64,000 nucleotides of DNA, taken from contig JAHIOQ010000032.1 in assembly GCA_018895275.1 (NCBI GenBank), positions 176 to 64,175 of the forward strand, given 5' to 3'. The stretch comes from Candidatus Omnitrophota bacterium (lineage in GTDB: Bacteria > Omnitrophota > Gorgyraeia > B26-G9). The position numbers and the translations under genes are program-made. The number at the start of each line of letters is the position of its first letter. Position 1 is the first letter of the stretch. Below, piece by piece: positions 1-30,977 of this stretch. Under the pieces are notes generated by a model. That model saw only the letters and a program-made list of their open reading frames with translations, ran no database searches and had not been told where the DNA came from.

Positions 1-36
1 TAATGGGGGGCGCCGCGTTAGAGGGAAATCTCTAAC

Positions 37-188
37 GGGGCAAACCATTCGAAAGGATGGGACGGGCAGTAAATGCCCTTCTGAGAACAATCAGAAGCAA
101 AGCCGCAAACCTACGTTAGCTCATAGCTCATAGCTCATAGCTCATAGCAGAAACCAAGATCTAAGTAGGTGGTTGGGTTACCGAATGG
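37..188 (+). promoter_or_regulatory. candidate c-di-GMP-I (GEMM-I)-like riboswitch aptamer in the leader of the 289..2760 gene
   Basis: Collinear GEMM-I signature strings: GGCAAACC (39-46), ATTC-GAAA-GGAT tetraloop hairpin (47-58), GGGACG (59-64), GCAAAGCC (97-104), and GTAGGTGGTTGGGTTACCGAATGG (165-188). These closely match my recollection of the V. cholerae Vc2 aptamer. Atypical insertions lie at 65-96 and 120-160. Not verified by a covariance model. Confidence 0.55.
118..148. repeat. AGCTCAT heptanucleotide microsatellite, 4 perfect copies plus AGC
   Basis: Direct reading gives AGCTCAT x4 at 118-145, then AGC. The array lies between ACCTACGTTAG (109-119) and CTAAGTAGGT (161-170), which can pair with each other. 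Confidence 0.95.
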
Positions 189-194
189 AGAGTT

Positions 195-211
195 AGCTGA
201 TAGCTCATAGC
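195..211. repeat. short heptamer array AGCTGAT AGCTCAT AGC
   Basis: Direct reading. It is a degenerate member of the same heptamer family. Confidence 0.9.
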
Positions 212-240
212 AAGAGCTAAAAGATAACTGAAATAAACCA

Positions 241-277
241 GCCTGTTCTCAGAAAAACGAGAACAGGCCTTTTTATT
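241..277 (+). terminator. rho-independent terminator-like hairpin immediately upstream of the 289 start codon (likely attenuator)
   Basis: Perfect 10-bp stem GCCTGTTCTC (241-250) / GAGAACAGGC (259-268) followed by CTTTTTATT. The 5' arm is also complementary to 79-89. Confidence 0.7.
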
Positions 278-288
278 GGGATAAAAAA

Positions 289-2760
289 ATGATGAAAATA
301 AAAAGTAATAGTAGACAAAAAATAATGAACCTGCTGGTTGGCGCAGGTATAATAATTTTTTCAGCTGCGATTAATGTCTATGCTGCCAACCAAATGTCCG
401 CGGATAGTTATTTGTTTACGGTTATCGATGACAATACTCCGCCGGTTATCGACAGATGTTTGCCGGCCGCTGCAGGCGCTAATGTATCGCGCAGCAGTAA
501 TATCAAATTTTCGATCACGGATGATTTTTCCGGAGTGGATAGCTCTACGATAAATATTTCCGTAGGGACGACGCCTATCGTCGTTGACGGGGTAATCCGG
601 ACATATGTGAATGGCCAAGGCGATACAGTGGAATACGATGTTAAGATCGTAGAAAAATCCGCGAAGGAATATGTGGTTGTTTATGATCGGGTGGAATATT
701 TCAATTATGAAGAAAATGTTACGGTTTCCGTTTCCGCTAGCGATGTCCGGGGTAATGCGATGGGGACAAGTTCTTATTTGTTTAAGGTTCAGAACTTTGT
801 TCACGGTTCGGTTAAGTCCTTATCCGGCAAGAGAAATGCATCATCTGTCCTGGTTGAGCAAGAACAGGATAATTCCTGTGTTGTAGTTTCCGATAACGGT
901 AAGAATGTTTATATCGTATGGGAAGAGGTTGTCTCCGGATACTGGGATATCTATTGCGCGGAATCTGCGGATTTTGGCGAAAGCTTTCTGAACGTAATTA
1001 AGGTAAACGGAAATGAGGATAATGTCGACCACCGTTATCCGGATGCGGCAATCGATGCTTCCGGTAATGTGTATGTGGTATGGCAGCAGCGCAGCGGTGT
1101 TAACGATTGGGATATATATGTCGCGCGGCTTGAGAGTGGTGCGGCGGGCTTCGCAAGCGCTAGGCTTATTTACAATGACTCAGGCGCAAGTAATCAGACC
1201 CGGCCTTCGATTGCCGTCGGCCCCGCGCTTACGGATGACGGAGATAGTGATACTGTGGAGCCGGCGACCGTGTATGTTTGCTGGCTGGACGATAAGGCCG
1301 GTATAGATATGGTTTATTATACCAGAACAACCGCCGATTACGCGGATGAATGGGATGAATTTGTCGGTATGGCATTAAGGATTGATGATGACCGTTGGCC
1401 GCAGTTATGCGCGGATCCGAGGATAAGGTTAGATGACTCCGGCCGTATATTTGCTGCCTGGAGAGGGCAAAATCAGGATTCCACGTCAAGTATTTATTTT
1501 GATACGGCGGCCGCAACAAGTGTTGACGCGGGAGAAAATTTCGGTGTGGATACGATAGTAAGCGATGGGACGGCTAACGGTAAAGGCCCGGACTTAGAGG
1601 TTTCTCAAACCGGCAGTATTGTTTATGTGTTGTGCAAAAAACTAACCGGAACAGAGGCGAATTTGCTTCTTTATTGCTATAACTATAATCAGGGTTTGGG
1701 AGTTTATGAGCTGGACGGTAGTTACCAGGTGAATGATGCGGCATTGTCTGCGGATACGTTGTTGGAATATGCCCTGAAGATAAATAATAACAACGATGTT
1801 TTTGTGGCCTGGAGCGGAAAACAGGGAGATTCCTGCGTAATTAATTTAGCGGGCGCGCTGCATACGGATTATCAGTTTGAAGATTACACGCAGTTTGCAA
1901 CCGGAGGACAGCAATTCAGGCCGGCATTGGCGACGGATATAGAGGGCAATCACTTTTTTGTCACCTGGACGGATGATCGGAATCTGCAGAATGAAGTCTG
2001 CTTTTGCCGGAATACCTTTATTACGACGGATGAGATCATCTCTGAAGGGGTAGATAGCAATACCGGCGGGCAGGTAAACGTAAGCAGTGGGGATATCTCC
2101 GGAGCAGGGATTGATGTCTCTGCGGATGCGATGGAGACGCCTCTGCAGATTACGATTGCTGAAGTTGTTGCTCCTCCGGCGGATGCCGCGGATATGAGCA
2201 GTGTAGGGCCGGTTGTTGATTTCGGGCCGGGCGGTACGATCTTTAACAGTAACGTTACGATTAGTCTGCCGTATTCGGAGCTTTCCGTGACTGATGCCGG
2301 TATTAACGAGGCATCACTAAAGGTGTACTATTATAATCTTAGCGCCTCGGCATGGGAGCTTGTGAGCGGCGCCGTAGTCGATCCGGCGCGCAATGTTGTC
2401 AGCGTGGCGACCAACCATTTTTCCATGTATGTTGTGGCTGGAACAGCAGAATTAGGCGACGACAGTCCTCCGGATGACATTGTGCCCCCGGCGTCTGTAT
2501 CCAGCAGCAGCAGCAGCAGCGGCGGATGTTTTATCGCCACTGCGGCATTTGGAACAAAAATGGCCAAGGAAGTCAGGAGCTTATGTGAGTTCAGGGACAG
2601 GTACCTCTTGAAGAATACTTTCGGCAGTGCCTTTGTGCGGTTCTATTATCGTAATAGCCCACCGATAGCGGACTATATCGCGAAAAAAGAAAGGCTAAAA
2701 CGTGTAATCAGGGCTTGTTTAAGGCCGCTGATAATTTTTAGCCGGGCAATATGCGGGTAG
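289..2760 (+). CDS. secreted or surface repeat protein (beta-propeller-like W-motif repeats) with a C-terminal Cys-Phe-Ile box domain
   Basis: 823-aa ORF with an N-terminal hydrophobic signal/anchor ([18 protein letters not shown]). It has spaced repeats [36 protein letters not shown] and FFVTWTDD. A Ser run is followed by [37 protein letters not shown] at the C-terminus. Confidence 0.85.
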
Positions 2761-3027: not shown

Positions 3028-3282
3028 ATTATTAGTGGTATAGTTTGAAGATATTTATCCCGCCTTCGCACCTGCCCCCGCCAAGGGCGGGGGGATATCC
3101 GCCATAAATAATGGCGAGATCTCGGCGCGACTGGGGCGTGGCGGAAATGCGAAGAAACAGCTTCGGCGGGATGTCACTGGATGGCAAGCCCGATTCACAG
3201 TGTCGGGCGAGATAACTCCGGGCTTGCCGGGGGGGATTTCCATAAACAAGAAATTAGCCGTAAACCCATTGAATGGTGTATC

Positions 3283-4146
3283 GTGAAAGTACAAAATTTA
3301 TTAAAAACTTCAATTATTATTATTTTGCTGGGGATAATCTATTATCCTATGTTTTGCTGGGTGTGGGAACGCTGGAATGCTACCGAGTCGTACTACAGTC
3401 ATGGGCCGCTGATTATTATCACATCGTTATTTATTGTTTGGGTCAAAAAAAAGGAATTGAAAAAACTGGAACTGCAGCCTTCTAATTGGGGGATTGTATT
3501 GGTTGCCTTAGGATTATTACTTCATTTGTCCGGAATCTGGGCCGGAGTATATTTCGTATCCGGGTTTTCATTTATTTTGGCTATCACGGGTTTGATTATG
3601 TATTTTTTTGGGAAAAGAATTTTAAAGGAGATTTGGTTCCCTGTGACTTTTCTTCTTTTTATGGTTCCACTGCCATTGGTAATAATAAGCGATATTACGT
3701 TTAAAATGAAAATGTTTGCTACACATGGGGCGGTTTTAGCGCTTAATAAAATCGGAATAACATCAATACAAGAGGGAAGTACAATAAAAATGCCTTATTC
3801 TTATTTAATCGTGGAAGGACAATGTAGTGGCTTGAAGTATTTAATATCACTTTTAGCGTTTGGCGCGGCCTTTGCGTATTTAATAAGAAAAAATATTGCG
3901 GTTAGGTGGATGTTATTTTTATCATCAATTCCTATCGCGCTGCTGGCAAATATCTTCCGGATTGTATTGATGGGGTGGGTTAGTGATGTATTTGGAATGG
4001 AAGCAGCGCATGGGTGGTTTCATGATTTTTCTGGGTTTTTGTTATTTTTCTTTGCCGCAGTGGGGTTTTTAGTGGTGAACAATTTGCTTACAACCCAGGT
4101 TAAGATAGATACAAACACTAAACTCGAAATACCAAATTCTAAATAA
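3283..4146 (+). CDS. exosortase family protein (EpsH/Xrt-like transpeptidase)
   Basis: Polytopic membrane ORF with exosortase hallmarks: ESYYSHGPL near the N-terminus, Cys in EGQCSGLKY, Arg in ANIFRIV, and His in AAHGWFHDFSG. The start is ambiguous (GTG 3283 preferred; in-frame ATG at 3181). Confidence 0.85.
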   Translation: MKVQNLLKTSIIIILLGIIYYPMFCWVWERWNATESYYSHGPLIIITSLFIVWVKKKELKKLELQPSNWGIVLVALGLLLHLSGIWAGVYFVSGFSFILAITGLIMYFFGKRILKEIWFPVTFLLFMVPLPLVIISDITFKMKMFATHGAVLALNKIGITSIQEGSTIKMPYSYLIVEGQCSGLKYLISLLAFGAAFAYLIRKNIAVRWMLFLSSIPIALLANIFRIVLMGWVSDVFGMEAAHGWFHDFSGFLLFFFAAVGFLVVNNLLTTQVKIDTNTKLEIPNSK

Positions 4147-4475: not shown

Positions 4476-4810
4476 TATCATTCTCCGTGTCTCTGCGTCT
4501 TTGTGTGATTATAATATTAAGTTTTTAAATGGGAATCGATGCTTTTTTCTTCTCTCTTGTCCTTCAATGCCTTATATCTTTTCTTTCAATTCATTTAAGA
4601 ATGGACCGCAAAGACAATAATGTTGGCTAATTAGCACAACAGTTGTTTATAAAAATGGACAGAAATAGAGGGACGGAGCAAATATTATTAGTAGAAGTAA
4701 TAAAAGTTAAAACATTAGGTATGTTTTTAAACAAATTTAATTGCTTTAATTTTATATCGTTATAAATATGAACAGATAAAAAATAAAAAAACGCCTTGCT
4801 GCATTGTTTT

Positions 4811-4826
4811 TGGCACAAAAAATGCT
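4811..4826 (+). promoter_or_regulatory. sigma-54 (-24/-12) type promoter upstream of the sugar transferase gene
   Basis: TGGCAC-AAAAAA-TGCT has exact consensus GG-to-GC spacing (G4812 to G4824 = 12 nt). It lies 66 nt upstream of ATG 4892, and a sigma-54 activator is encoded at 10691. Confidence 0.6.
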
Positions 4827-4891
4827 GATAAATGATACTAATACACTAATACACCTTTATTAGAGTTACAACAATAAAAGGAAGCGTAGGT

Positions 4892-5674
4892 ATGTTGAAC
4901 AAAATAGCAAGAGTACATCTTAAAATTCTGGTTTCTACGATTGCCGTTACTTTGCTGCTGGTGATTCCTAAGGTTATGGCTATGTCATCTTCACAAGAGG
5001 CCCTGGCGTTGCGGCCATATGGGGTTTTTGCGTTTTTATTCTGGCTTAGCGGGGTATCGCTTCGTTTTATACAGGCGCGCTTTTTACAGTTGAAACGCGG
5101 TTTTGATATTATGGTTGCTTCTATCAGTCTGATGATTACTTCCCCGATTATTGTGCTCGCGGCCTTGGGGATAAAGCTGTTTTCTCCCAAAGGTCCGGTG
5201 TTTTATTCCCAGTTAAGAGTCGGGGAGAACGGCCGGATATTTAAAATCTATAAATTGCGTTCTATGAAGCCTGATGCGGAGAACGGCACCGGCGCGATAT
5301 GGAGTTCCGGTGAGGCTGATCCGAGATTAATCCCGTTTATCGGAAGATTGATGAGGAAGGCGCATATAGATGAAATTCCGCAATTTTTCAATGTGCTAAA
5401 AGGCGAGATGAGTGTTGTCGGGCCGCGGCCGGAGCGTCCGGAGATAGTGAATATTTTAAAATATGAGATACCGGAATATGAGAAAAGATTGAGGGTAAAA
5501 CCGGGTATTACCGGGCTGGCGCAGGTAAGGAGCAGATATGACAAAACCCTGTCTGATGTGAAGAAAAAGGTGAAGCTTGACCTTTTATATATACGCAAGA
5601 TGTGTCTTTTTACGGAATTAAATATTATTTTTAAGACAGTGTTGGTTATTTTAACAGGTAAAGCGCTAGGTTAA
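4892..5674 (+). CDS. polyprenyl-phosphate sugar phosphotransferase (bacterial sugar transferase family; exopolysaccharide priming enzyme)
   Basis: Contains KRGFDIMVASISL..SPII TM, IDEIPQFFNVLKGEMSVVGPRPERPE and PGITGLAQV, all typical of the WbaP/EpsB-type C-terminal domain. Confidence 0.85.
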   Translation: MLNKIARVHLKILVSTIAVTLLLVIPKVMAMSSSQEALALRPYGVFAFLFWLSGVSLRFIQARFLQLKRGFDIMVASISLMITSPIIVLAALGIKLFSPKGPVFYSQLRVGENGRIFKIYKLRSMKPDAENGTGAIWSSGEADPRLIPFIGRLMRKAHIDEIPQFFNVLKGEMSVVGPRPERPEIVNILKYEIPEYEKRLRVKPGITGLAQVRSRYDKTLSDVKKKVKLDLLYIRKMCLFTELNIIFKTVLVILTGKALG

Positions 5675-10690: not shown

Positions 10691-11884
10691 ATGAGCCGAA
10701 TTTACACCCAGGATTCGGATGGGAGGGTAGTCATGAGAACACATATCTTAGTTACTGATGAGGATAAACAGATAAAAATGATTATAGATAAAATAACGGA
10801 TGGTAACGCCAAAAACTTCGGGGATAAAACAAATACATGTTTTGAAGGAAAACGTAAGTTGCCTTTTGATATGCAGCGCCATAAGTTTCATACCGTAATC
10901 GGTAAAGATGAGAAGATGCAGAAGATTTATTCCATGATTGAAGCAATTGCCGATACTCCTTCAACGGTAATGATTTGCGGAGAAAGCGGTACGGGTAAAA
11001 GAATGATCGCGCAGGCCATCCATCAGGCGGATACGTACCGCTGCAATAAGCCGTTTATTGAAATAAGCTGCGGGGCGCTGCCGGAGACGCTTTTGGAAAG
11101 TGAACTGTTCGGCCATGTTAAGGGCGCCTTTACCGGAGCGATTAAAGATCGGGCCGGCAGATTTGAGCTCGCGAACGGAGGAACTTTATTACTGGATGAG
11201 ATCGATACATGCTCGCCGAGTTTGCAGGTTAAATTACTGCGGGTATTGGAAGAAGGCGGGTATGAACGGGTGGGGGATACAAGGACGTTTAAATCCGATG
11301 TGCGGATTATCGCGGCAACGAATCAAAATCTTGAAGAGCTTGTAAAAAGGAAGAGCTTTCGCGGGGATTTGTTCTGGAGGATTAATGTGATAAGTATTAA
11401 TTTGCCTCCGTTACGGGAGCGCCCGGGAGATATCTCGCTGCTCGCGAGTCATTTCCTGAATAAATATAACCTGATGCGTAAGCCGCGCAACGGAATGTTT
11501 ATTGAAAATGTTTCAGAGGAAGCAATGCAGGCGATGATGCTGTATTCATGGCCGGGAAATATCCGGGAACTGGAAAACACGATTGAAAGAGCGTGTATTT
11601 TGGTTAACACCAATACGATCCAATTGAAAGATTTGCCGGATTCAATCCGCAATAACAGCTGCCCGCTCAAAGAGGAAGCTTCGAAGAGCAGTTTTTCTTT
11701 AAAAGACGCTCTGAAGCACCCGGAAAGGGATATCGTGATTAATGCTCTGGAGCATACGAATTGGAATTGTACGAGAACCGCGGCGTATCTGGGCATTAAC
11801 CGTACGACACTCTACAATAAGATGAAGCTTTACAATATAAAGCGAAGCAAGGAAAAAGGATTTGACGGCAACGGTAATTTTTAG
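10691..11884 (+). CDS. sigma-54-dependent transcriptional activator (bEBP) lacking a full receiver domain
   Basis: AAA+ core with Walker A GESGTGKRM, the sigma-54 contact motif GAFTGA, and ELENTIERA. C-terminal Fis-type HTH (TRTAAYLGINRTTLYNKMK). The N-terminal region is only about 80 aa, with a vestigial HILVTDEDK string. Confidence 0.88.
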   Translation: MSRIYTQDSDGRVVMRTHILVTDEDKQIKMIIDKITDGNAKNFGDKTNTCFEGKRKLPFDMQRHKFHTVIGKDEKMQKIYSMIEAIADTPSTVMICGESGTGKRMIAQAIHQADTYRCNKPFIEISCGALPETLLESELFGHVKGAFTGAIKDRAGRFELANGGTLLLDEIDTCSPSLQVKLLRVLEEGGYERVGDTRTFKSDVRIIAATNQNLEELVKRKSFRGDLFWRINVISINLPPLRERPGDISLLASHFLNKYNLMRKPRNGMFIENVSEEAMQAMMLYSWPGNIRELENTIERACILVNTNTIQLKDLPDSIRNNSCPLKEEASKSSFSLKDALKHPERDIVINALEHTNWNCTRTAAYLGINRTTLYNKMKLYNIKRSKEKGFDGNGNF

Positions 11885-30901: not shown

Positions 30902-30977
30902 TGGTGGAGCTGGGGGGATTCGAACCCCCGACCAACAGACTGCCAGCCTGCTGCGCTCCCAGCTGCGCTACAGCCCC
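30902..30977 (-). tRNA. tRNA-Ala (anticodon GGC), CCA encoded
   Basis: The reverse complement is GGGGCTGTAGCGCAGCTGGGAGCGC...CTGGCAG...GGGGGTTCGAATCCCCCCAGCTCCACCA. The G3:U70 identity pair is present. Confidence 0.92.

Follow-up and report, generated by a model that had tools for sequence, protein, structure and literature searches.

Riboswitches of class I for cyclic di-GMP (c-di-GMP), known as GEMM-I and collected in the Rfam family RF01051, are well known, as are their terminator-based control and their association with envelope genes. The cyclic GMP-AMP (cGAMP) riboswitches of Geobacter (GEMM-Ib) have the same fold and carry an A at position 20 (G20A) as the signature of their specificity. 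For the Vc2 aptamer, whose numbering is used throughout, the literature names A33 of the tetraloop and the C44-G83 tertiary pair, lists A18 among the residues in contact with the ligand and has G20 and C92 determine the specificity for c-di-GMP. Weinberg et al. (2007) describe the tetraloop hairpin of GEMM RNAs, without mention of an insert, as two stems of 2 and 6 bp separated by an internal loop of 3 nt. They find the tetraloop receptor in about 50% of the instances and report ON switches in which the terminator overlaps the 3' side of P2. In the Bc1 riboswitch of Bacillus thuringiensis (PMC11218506), a class I aptamer is reported to be joined to a distant terminator-based platform, as in the element described below, although the Bc1 platform has two terminators and no insert module has been reported for it. 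The present work deals with the leader at positions 1-288 of a 64-kb stretch of DNA from a Candidatus Omnitrophota bacterium (64,000 nt of contig JAHIOQ010000032.1, hereafter the window), which precedes genes for a large secreted CFI-box-CTERM protein and an exosortase. This element descends from the class I c-di-GMP riboswitches and probably works like them, and bases from about 29 to 277 probably form a decorated Omnitrophota c-di-GMP-I riboswitch that serves as an OFF switch in the 5' leader of the CFI-box-CTERM/exosortase operon. What is new here is a GEMM-I element decorated with a conserved two-hairpin module, with apexes built of repeats and with an antiterminator located in the interior of the aptamer.

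The three motifs from which the original prediction had recognized a Vc2-like aptamer, GGCAAACC-ATTC-GAAA-GGAT-GGGACG at 39-64, GCAAAGCC at 97-104 and GTAGGTGGTTGGGTTACCGAATGG at 165-188, are all present in the sequence, and the helix proposed between 109-119 and 161-170 forms with 10 bp and G115 bulged. The likeness to Vc2 and RF01051 comprises the three-helix junction, the tetraloop hairpin GCAAAC...GNRA...GGGAC interrupted by the AAA/GAC internal loop, the AAA linker, the receptor hairpin and the G bulged from it (G83), and NCCG as the 3' tail, together with equivalents of G20, C44, A47, G83 and C92. The leader also lies in the 5' untranslated region of an envelope/extracellular gene, as described for GEMM RNAs (Weinberg et al., 2007). 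In contrast to Vc2, the window copy contains a 33-nt two-hairpin module at C44/G45 and a 56-nt apex with a microsatellite. It agrees with the class in its structural features and departs from it in its Rfam score and at A18.

The Rfam annotation itself speaks against the assignment, since the search of the 64-kb window gave nothing at gathering score except a tRNA and a transfer-messenger RNA (tmRNA)-like match, and the leader did not reach the gathering score of RF01051 (35 bits). Its best raw match was c-di-GMP-I-GGC (RF03167) at 30-111, with 25.8 bits against a gathering score of 59; this alignment is near-perfect over the 5' half, to which it is confined, and then forces the insert into the role of the second hairpin, the match being an artefact of clan competition. 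The failure of the window copy is explained by its 33-nt and 56-nt insertions, as orthologues that are less burdened with inserts pass and a model that takes in the module (R1, below) gives the window 60.5 bits. When genomes were scanned with 19 aligned orthologues, 20 Omnitrophota loci came up (loci are designated by L numbers), and seven leaders directly upstream of an orthologue exceed the RF01051 threshold (L006, 62.4 bits; L003, 62.1; L001, 43.1; L008, 39.3; L004, 38.7; L002, 38.5; L018, 37.7). L018 has a second, upstream aptamer (38.2 bits), and further insert-bearing aptamers score between 35.8 and 54.8 bits on RF01051. Reading of the leaders of L005, L007 and L020 revealed the aptamer there too, below gathering score like that of the window. 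The RF01051 check proposed for the leader had therefore a divided outcome, negative for the window and positive for orthologous leaders. Altogether, 9 of 26 examined aptamers lie below the RF01051 gathering score (window, L005, L007, L020, L028, L070, L075, L087 and L095). In addition, metagenome contigs were scanned with a pattern for aptamers whose insert site holds 14-44 nt, and of the 97 matches most were discarded as coding or chance (for instance, a human-gut histidine-kinase gene), about a dozen loci from diverse samples being real aptamers; the window sequence itself was absent from both the genome and the metagenome collections scanned. These data mean that a considerable fraction of the real c-di-GMP-I riboswitches of uncultured phyla goes unnoticed by Rfam annotation, structured insertions being a source of systematic false negatives.

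A covariance model (R1) built from 22 relatives, with the window excluded and the two hairpins of the insert (A and B) included, matches the window at 32-187 with 60.5 bits (E about 1e-16 under a rough calibration), which is the sole match on either strand of the 64 kb, and all modelled pairs are standard. RNAfold of 29-192 alone gives the same five-branch fold. Twenty-six aptamers could be parsed by their anchor motifs, and in a normalised alignment of 23 of them (A2) pairing is found in 96.8% of the cells and double-sided changes in 18 of 30 pairs. The covariation score of 0.566 was not reached by any of 500 shuffles, which gave 0.178, and sliding of the partners gave no more than 0.169. The homology to c-di-GMP-I aptamers is borne out by the orthologues that pass RF01051 and by this relatives-only model, and the covariation expected across homologous leaders is found in these 18 pairs. 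The suggested control, c-di-GMP-II (RF01786), gave no match even at E<=10 in window 1-2000. The original prediction had named as refutation a score below threshold combined with a lack of conservation in orthologous leaders; the first holds for the window, the second does not. With very high confidence, then, this is a structured leader derived from GEMM-I, and its elements and the genes that follow it are located as listed.

12-41, + strand: P0, a 5' hairpin GCCGCGUUAGAG / CUCUAACGGGGC (inverted repeat of 12-23 and 30-41, 12 nt, 92% complementary).
29-37, + strand: 5' strand of P1, pairing with 182-191 (RNAfold minimum free energy (MFE) structure of 29-192; covariance-model alignment).
38-39, + strand: junction between P1 and P1a; G39 is the equivalent of G20, which recognises one ligand guanine, and G37 the equivalent of A18 (alignment of relatives).
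40-63, + strand: 5' strand of P1a (G40, C41), AAA internal loop, tetraloop hairpin 45-60 with GAAA at 51-54, then G61, A62 and C63 (Rfam consensus).
64-78, + strand: hairpin A, GGGCA-GUAAA-UGCCC (parse; four of four scored pairs covary in 23 aptamers; modelled in R1 and matched in the window).
79-96, + strand: hairpin B, UUCUGA-GAACAA-UCAGAA, in which 79-89 is also the antiterminator strand (parse, covariation, 11-nt complement).
97-100, + strand: 3' strand of P1a (G97, C98), then the AA linker, A99 being the equivalent of the ligand-intercalating A47 (alignment A2).
101-179, + strand: receptor hairpin, P2 of Weinberg et al. and P3 of the crystal structure (10 of 10 pairs form).
117-148, + strand: heptamer microsatellite, 4.6 copies of UAGCUCA in the apex of the receptor hairpin (Tandem Repeats Finder).
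180-191, + strand: A180, C181 (equivalent of C92) and the 3' strand of P1 at 182-191 (RNAfold, covariance-model alignment).
193-229, + strand: linker hairpin holding the partial repeat copy at 194-227 (repeat search, RNAfold).
238-254, + strand: switching strand, pairing through 244-254 with 79-89 (antiterminator) or through 241-250 with 259-268 (terminator) (MFE structure of 29-258, pair probabilities).
241-277, + strand: intrinsic terminator GCCUGUUCUC-N8-GAGAACAGGC plus U-tract (consensus scan; -17.9 kcal/mol).
289-2760, + strand: regulated gene, encoding a secreted CFI-box-CTERM protein of 823 aa (open reading frame (ORF); signal peptide; NF041770 at 2.1e-28).
3181-4146, downstream of the CFI-box-CTERM gene: exosortase gene (PF09721 at 2.1e-64).

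The first hairpin of the aptamer (G40 C41 paired with G97 C98, AAA at 42-44, CCAUUC-GAAA-GGAUGG at 45-60 and GAC at 61-63) fits the described 2-bp and 6-bp stems, 3-nt internal loop and GNRA cap, with the A/B module interrupting the 3' side of the internal loop. Positions 40-63 fit the Rfam consensus almost perfectly, C63 being the equivalent of C44, and P1b covaries (4 of 6 pairs with both sides changed), while the columns of GC-AAA-GCC (97-104) are invariant in 23 of 23 aligned aptamers. The basal stems of the receptor hairpin are 101-104/176-179 and 106-111/168-170 plus 173-175, with G105, G171 and G172 bulged, G172 corresponding to G83; all 26 parsed aptamers form the 10 pairs of these stems, and relative to most relatives the window shows two G-C to A-U double changes, which it has in common with L007. 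The three-helix junction, with two adjacent hairpins closed by P1, is present and covaries, P1 having a shifted register in the window. Both specificity nucleotides are kept (G20 as G39, C92 as C181), and the equivalents of C44 and G83, C63 and G172, occupy columns that are invariant C and G in 23 of 23 aptamers, a tertiary pair being predicted between them. Given G39, the element is not assigned to the cGAMP riboswitches, and we infer that c-di-GMP is its ligand. G20 is found in the window and in about half of the relatives, and A20 in aptamers of L003, L006, L008 (two), L018 (two), L020, L028, L098 (three) and L099.

Between GGGAC and GCAAAGCC, that is, between C44 and G45, the aptamer is interrupted by two small hairpins, as had been noticed, and the insert measures 33 nt (64-96) rather than the 32 nt (65-96) first given, because G64 belongs to hairpin A. 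The module adjoins the C44-G83 tertiary pair and lies two nucleotides before A47. An insert occupies this site in 23 of the 26 parsed aptamers, and 22 of these 23 resolve into exactly two hairpins, each of at least 4 bp, that adjoin one another and their flanks without a single linker nucleotide, a geometry found in only 1% of shuffled inserts. Covariation extends to each of the eight scored pairs in hairpins A and B, which show 4-6 pair types apiece. Because the hairpin columns were picked by a pairing-maximising parse, the percentage of paired cells is inflated and gives the reading less support than it seems to; stronger evidence for the module comes from the variety of the pair types and from the absence of linker nucleotides. 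The module accompanies G20 and A20 aptamers alike, and so does not track ligand specificity. The idea of a regulatory hairpin inserted in the ligand-binding junction holds as far as the insert is concerned; a regulatory hairpin specific to the window it is not, since the module is conserved and is also found in leaders that have no terminator. This covarying module, which recurs two nucleotides away from the adenine that intercalates the ligand, was not described in the literature that we searched, nor did a search on Omnitrophica riboswitches yield anything relevant. A more speculative view, which we consider doubtful, would make the A/B module an unrecognised structural subclass of GEMM-I, in which the AAA/GAC loop is a four-way junction by the pocket, A or B acts as a switching strand, the slippage-prone heptamer array is a contingency locus that makes the switch behave differently from cell to cell or strain to strain, and the window aptamer, with its G38-C181 pair, may be evolving towards a new input or ligand independence.

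Tandem Repeats Finder detected a single array at 117-148, of period 7, with 4.6 copies, 100% identity and a score of 64. The proposed placement of a length-variable repeat at the apex of the receptor hairpin is supported, whereas its uniqueness to this locus is not, as homologous arrays exist in relatives. RF01051 alignments of the orthologue leaders contain insertions of 53-74 nt in the apex of the second hairpin, flanked by CUACAUUAG...CUAGUAAGG, in the same place and with nearly the same flanks as window 112-119 / 161-167. The apex of relatives forms a long hairpin with mismatches at regular intervals (-0.19 to -0.44 kcal/mol per nt) with both arms made of tandem 7-8-nt units, and the unit of the 5' arm in L001, L002, L006, L008, L018, L020 and L108, UAGCUSA, is the same as that of the window. 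The number of units varies between leaders, which indicates that length variation is real at the level of the lineage. The window keeps the 5'-arm array alone, its apex being weakly structured (-0.11 kcal/nt), and likewise the L098 aptamer at 5183 (L098_5183). The heptamer arrays are a lineage trait in a solvent-facing position and, like the insert, are not inventions unique to the window locus. A direct repeat with 76% identity was also found, segment 131-164 being copied at 194-227, in the linker between aptamer and terminator. In L008 (about 4721-4909 and from 1742 onward) and L020 (about 4710-4800), insertions of ~75-130 nt are located in the apical loop of the tetraloop hairpin, which is a third decoration site in the lineage.

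As for the expression platform, a terminator had been placed at 241-277, shortly before the ATG, and the consensus scan indeed scored 241-268 plus the tail CTTTTTATTG as terminator-like, within an inverted repeat of 232-250 / 259-277 that ends 11-12 nt upstream of 289. The two alternative partners predicted for 79-89 are likewise recovered: the segment pairs locally in hairpin B or with 244-254, to which it forms an 11-nt inverted repeat of 100% complementarity, and an 11-nt Watson-Crick match to the 5' half of the terminator was never obtained when the aptamer was shuffled 300 times with its dinucleotides preserved. The postulated set of three mutually exclusive helices does exist. For the nascent transcript 29-258, the partition function assigns a mean p=0.94 to 79-89::244-254 and p=0.03 to hairpin B, and the terminator reaches p about 1 once 259-268 is present in the full-length transcript. 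Segment 238-243 can pair with 171-176, and in the MFE structure of 29-258 the antiterminator is extended by this helix, which opens the base of the second hairpin. Moreover, UCAGAA at 249-254 repeats exactly the 3' strand (91-96) of hairpin B, whose loop is matched by 244-248, the layout needed for toehold strand displacement. Two other pairings were considered and set aside: ACAGGC of the P2 5' strand as antiterminator, since six-nucleotide matches are at chance level (p about 0.5), and GGGAC::CUGUUC in the window (59-67::241-249), which is possible at -14.7 kcal/mol but has an ensemble p=0.

The stem CCUGUUC...GAACAGG is found once in the 64-kb window and in 6 of 120 fetched loci, each time at a riboswitch leader, and for this reason a generic genomic terminator was rejected. 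Although the linker around it lacks conservation and the proteins share only ~50% identity, the stem is kept, and its sequence is therefore under constraint. In relatives, RNAduplex pairs the 5' arm and the loop of the terminator with UCGAAAG..UGGGAC(A/G)GG(U/C), a target running from the tetraloop region through the first hairpin's 3' strand and GAC into the start of hairpin A. The duplex energies range from -17 to -24 kcal/mol, with p<=0.03 versus shuffles in 8 of 12 leaders, although these per-leader p-values are not independent, given that the relatives share descent, and the argument is weakened to that extent. Nascent partition functions show the arm pairing mainly with the aptamer core in L007, in both L018 aptamers and in the three L098 aptamers, the signal being weaker in L003 and L006, and there is a compensatory change in the loop contact (UUGAAAG::CUUUCAA in L018 versus UCGAAAG::CUUUCGA elsewhere). 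Compared with the GEMM terminators of Weinberg et al. (2007), that of the window is placed ~50 nt downstream, and its complementarity is to the aptamer interior. A sequence-conserved terminator that pairs with the aptamer interior makes this an unusual expression platform.

Most likely, the leader stops transcription when the ligand is bound. Without ligand, the 5' arm of the terminator would invade the aptamer, the antiterminator forming during passage of the polymerase from 254 to 268, and read-through of the operon would result; binding of c-di-GMP would lock P1, the receptor hairpin and the insert, so that the terminator could form and transcription would stop (OFF). The pairing of the arm with the aptamer core in relatives supports the same OFF logic, and in relatives that have no terminator the ATG follows immediately after the 3' strand of P1 (CCGAAGAUG), which fits the OFF polarity. 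Whether the OFF direction is exerted in the window through 79-89::244-254 we regard as an even chance.

Several properties of the window copy weigh against its being a working OFF switch. The junction preceding P1a reads AACGGG in the window and AUAAAG, AUAAUA and similar in relatives; the equivalent of A18 is G37 in the window, as opposed to A in 25 of 25 relatives, and that of G14 is U33. P1 is shifted by 4 nt relative to the register of relatives, leaving a junction of 2 nt, and RNAfold pairs G38 with C181, the C92 equivalent, a pair that could fill the ligand site. At the tetraloop-receptor site, which is an internal loop in relatives (CCUAA...UAUGG or CCUACAU...AGUAAGG), the window reads CCUAC/GUAGG, fully Watson-Crick with G115 bulged, the loop being closed, and there is no 11-nt receptor motif. 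Pairing between hairpin B and the terminator occurs in the window only; relatives use the GGGAC core, plus the 5' strand of hairpin A if they bear the insert, and the CUUUCGA terminator loop by which theirs pairs with the tetraloop region has no such complementarity in the window, where the 11-nt match to hairpin B takes its place. The terminator state is also far more stable at equilibrium, which implies that the switch decision must be kinetic. Finally, P0, which is absent from the original prediction, sequesters the 5' strand of P1, G38, G39 and P1a: with 1-28 in the RNA, the partition function gives P0 p=0.92 and P1 p=0, and the antiterminator falls to p=0.42. No strong equivalent of P0 was seen in relatives, in which the G/C-rich segment 1-28 has no counterpart, and P0 and the remodelled junction set the window apart from all orthologous leaders.

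The inclusion of P0 in the transcript depends on the promoter. In 13 relatives (L001-L008, L018, L020, L098), GCAAA is preceded at a distance of 66-75 nt by a sigma-54-type promoter (TGGCAT-N5-TTGCT), and this geometry would place the window promoter to the left of base 1 and P0 inside the transcript; a consensus scan and manual inspection of 1-288 on the + strand found no sigma-54 or sigma-70 promoter.

One explanation of these properties, which we judge rather unlikely, is that the leader is a ligand-blind relic, a GEMM-I descendant that has lost ligand binding and works as a constitutive attenuator or leaves control to the promoter or another factor. The scores below the Rfam gathering thresholds, the unique changes of A18 to G and G14 to U with the junction cut to 2 nt, the predicted G38-C181 pair in the ligand site, the closed receptor loop, the loss of the 3' arm of the apex repeat hairpin and the dominance of P0 over P1 would all agree with decay. 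However, P1 has been rebuilt: the covariance-model alignment has A34-U186, C36-G183 and G37-C182 with a 4-nt junction deletion, and RNAfold extends P1 by six new base pairs (29-34/186-191), which argues for continued selection, though on a remodelled pocket. The receptor hairpin retains 10 of 10 pairs through two double changes, the equivalents of G20, C44, A47, G83 and C92 are intact, and the perfect 11-nt antiterminator complement would hardly be expected had there been no selection for switching. Taking the changes in the pocket and at the 5' end into account, we lean only slightly towards this copy still responding to c-di-GMP.

Alternatively, the fold could have been kept and its input altered, the junction and/or the A/B module changing the ligand (to 3'3'-cGAMP or another dinucleotide) or recruiting a protein. 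The A18 to G change in the pocket, the position of the module next to the C44-G83 tertiary pair, and the occurrence of A20, the GEMM-Ib signature, in 12 aptamers of eight relatives' loci, by which the lineage can be seen to explore pocket variants, are compatible with this, but the window keeps G20 and C92, the determinants of c-di-GMP specificity, and the module is found with G20 and A20 alike, so that an altered input seems improbable. A chance resemblance, or DNA-level elements such as an operator or an inserted repeat in place of RNA structure, is very improbable and for the aptamer effectively refuted, since, even if a perfect (100%) microsatellite could be a recent slippage product with no RNA role and the palindromic terminator stem could also be an operator, the covariance-model E is about 1e-16, the covariation includes G-U pairs and is strand-specific, and in about ten related leaders all elements have the same sense as the gene downstream.

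Regarding the operon presumably controlled by this riboswitch, the ATG at 289 opens an ORF of 823 codons, the leader being overlapped by tiny ORFs only. The product of the ORF shows 100% identity to a hypothetical protein from a metagenome-assembled genome of Candidatus Omnitrophica, and domain searches identified after the exosortase gene a sugar transferase, two PEP-CTERM proteins and a sigma-54 activator (10691-11884). The link that had been proposed between a c-di-GMP-type leader and a large surface protein beside an exosortase recurs in relatives, with c-di-GMP as the presumed ligand: the synteny of CFI-box gene, exosortase and sugar transferase is found at nine loci (L002, L003, L005, L006, L007, L008, L017, L018 and L020), and the aptamer was read upstream in eight of them, L017 ending ~270 nt before the match, with its leader unreadable. 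Orthologous leaders (e.g., L007, L018, L098, L108, L003 and L006) resemble that of the window in the order of CFI-box gene and exosortase, in the heptamer-repeat apexes and in the CCUGUUC...GAACAGG terminator, and have the A/B module in common with it except for L003, L006 and L020. The leaders of CFI-box paralogues that have no exosortase neighbour (L009-L016 and L019) were read and contain no aptamer. These operons seem to combine enhancer-dependent transcription with a riboswitch, and the leader offers the first regulatory handle on the uncharacterised CFI-box-CTERM/exosortase surface system of Omnitrophota, namely probable repression by c-di-GMP on top of a sigma-54 promoter. A literature search on CFI-box-CTERM found nothing relevant.

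The paralogues lacking the riboswitch (L009-L016, L019) stand after a histidine-kinase-like gene, none with an adjacent exosortase, and in several of them (e.g., L012, L013, L014, L016 and L019) the motif CATTAAGAAAAATTAATCTTATCTTCATCTTCTCTTAAT or a close variant occurs ~150-250 nt upstream of the CFI-box gene. In L098 (SDBU01000061.1, reverse strand), three insert-bearing aptamers are located within 10 kb, at 1847, 5183 and 6447, each with a CCUGUUC-type terminator and each preceding a gene for a signal-peptide protein, one of which is a CFI-box orthologue.

Elsewhere in the window, the tmRNA-like match at 30902-30977 (- strand; 48.1 against a gathering score of 47) spans 76 nt yet model positions 1-374, and may be a fragment or a tRNA-like domain. 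The segment 12007-14166 (- strand) encodes a 719-aa Hel308-like helicase (NF002654, 866 bits, slightly under the cut-off), here in a bacterial metagenome-assembled genome.

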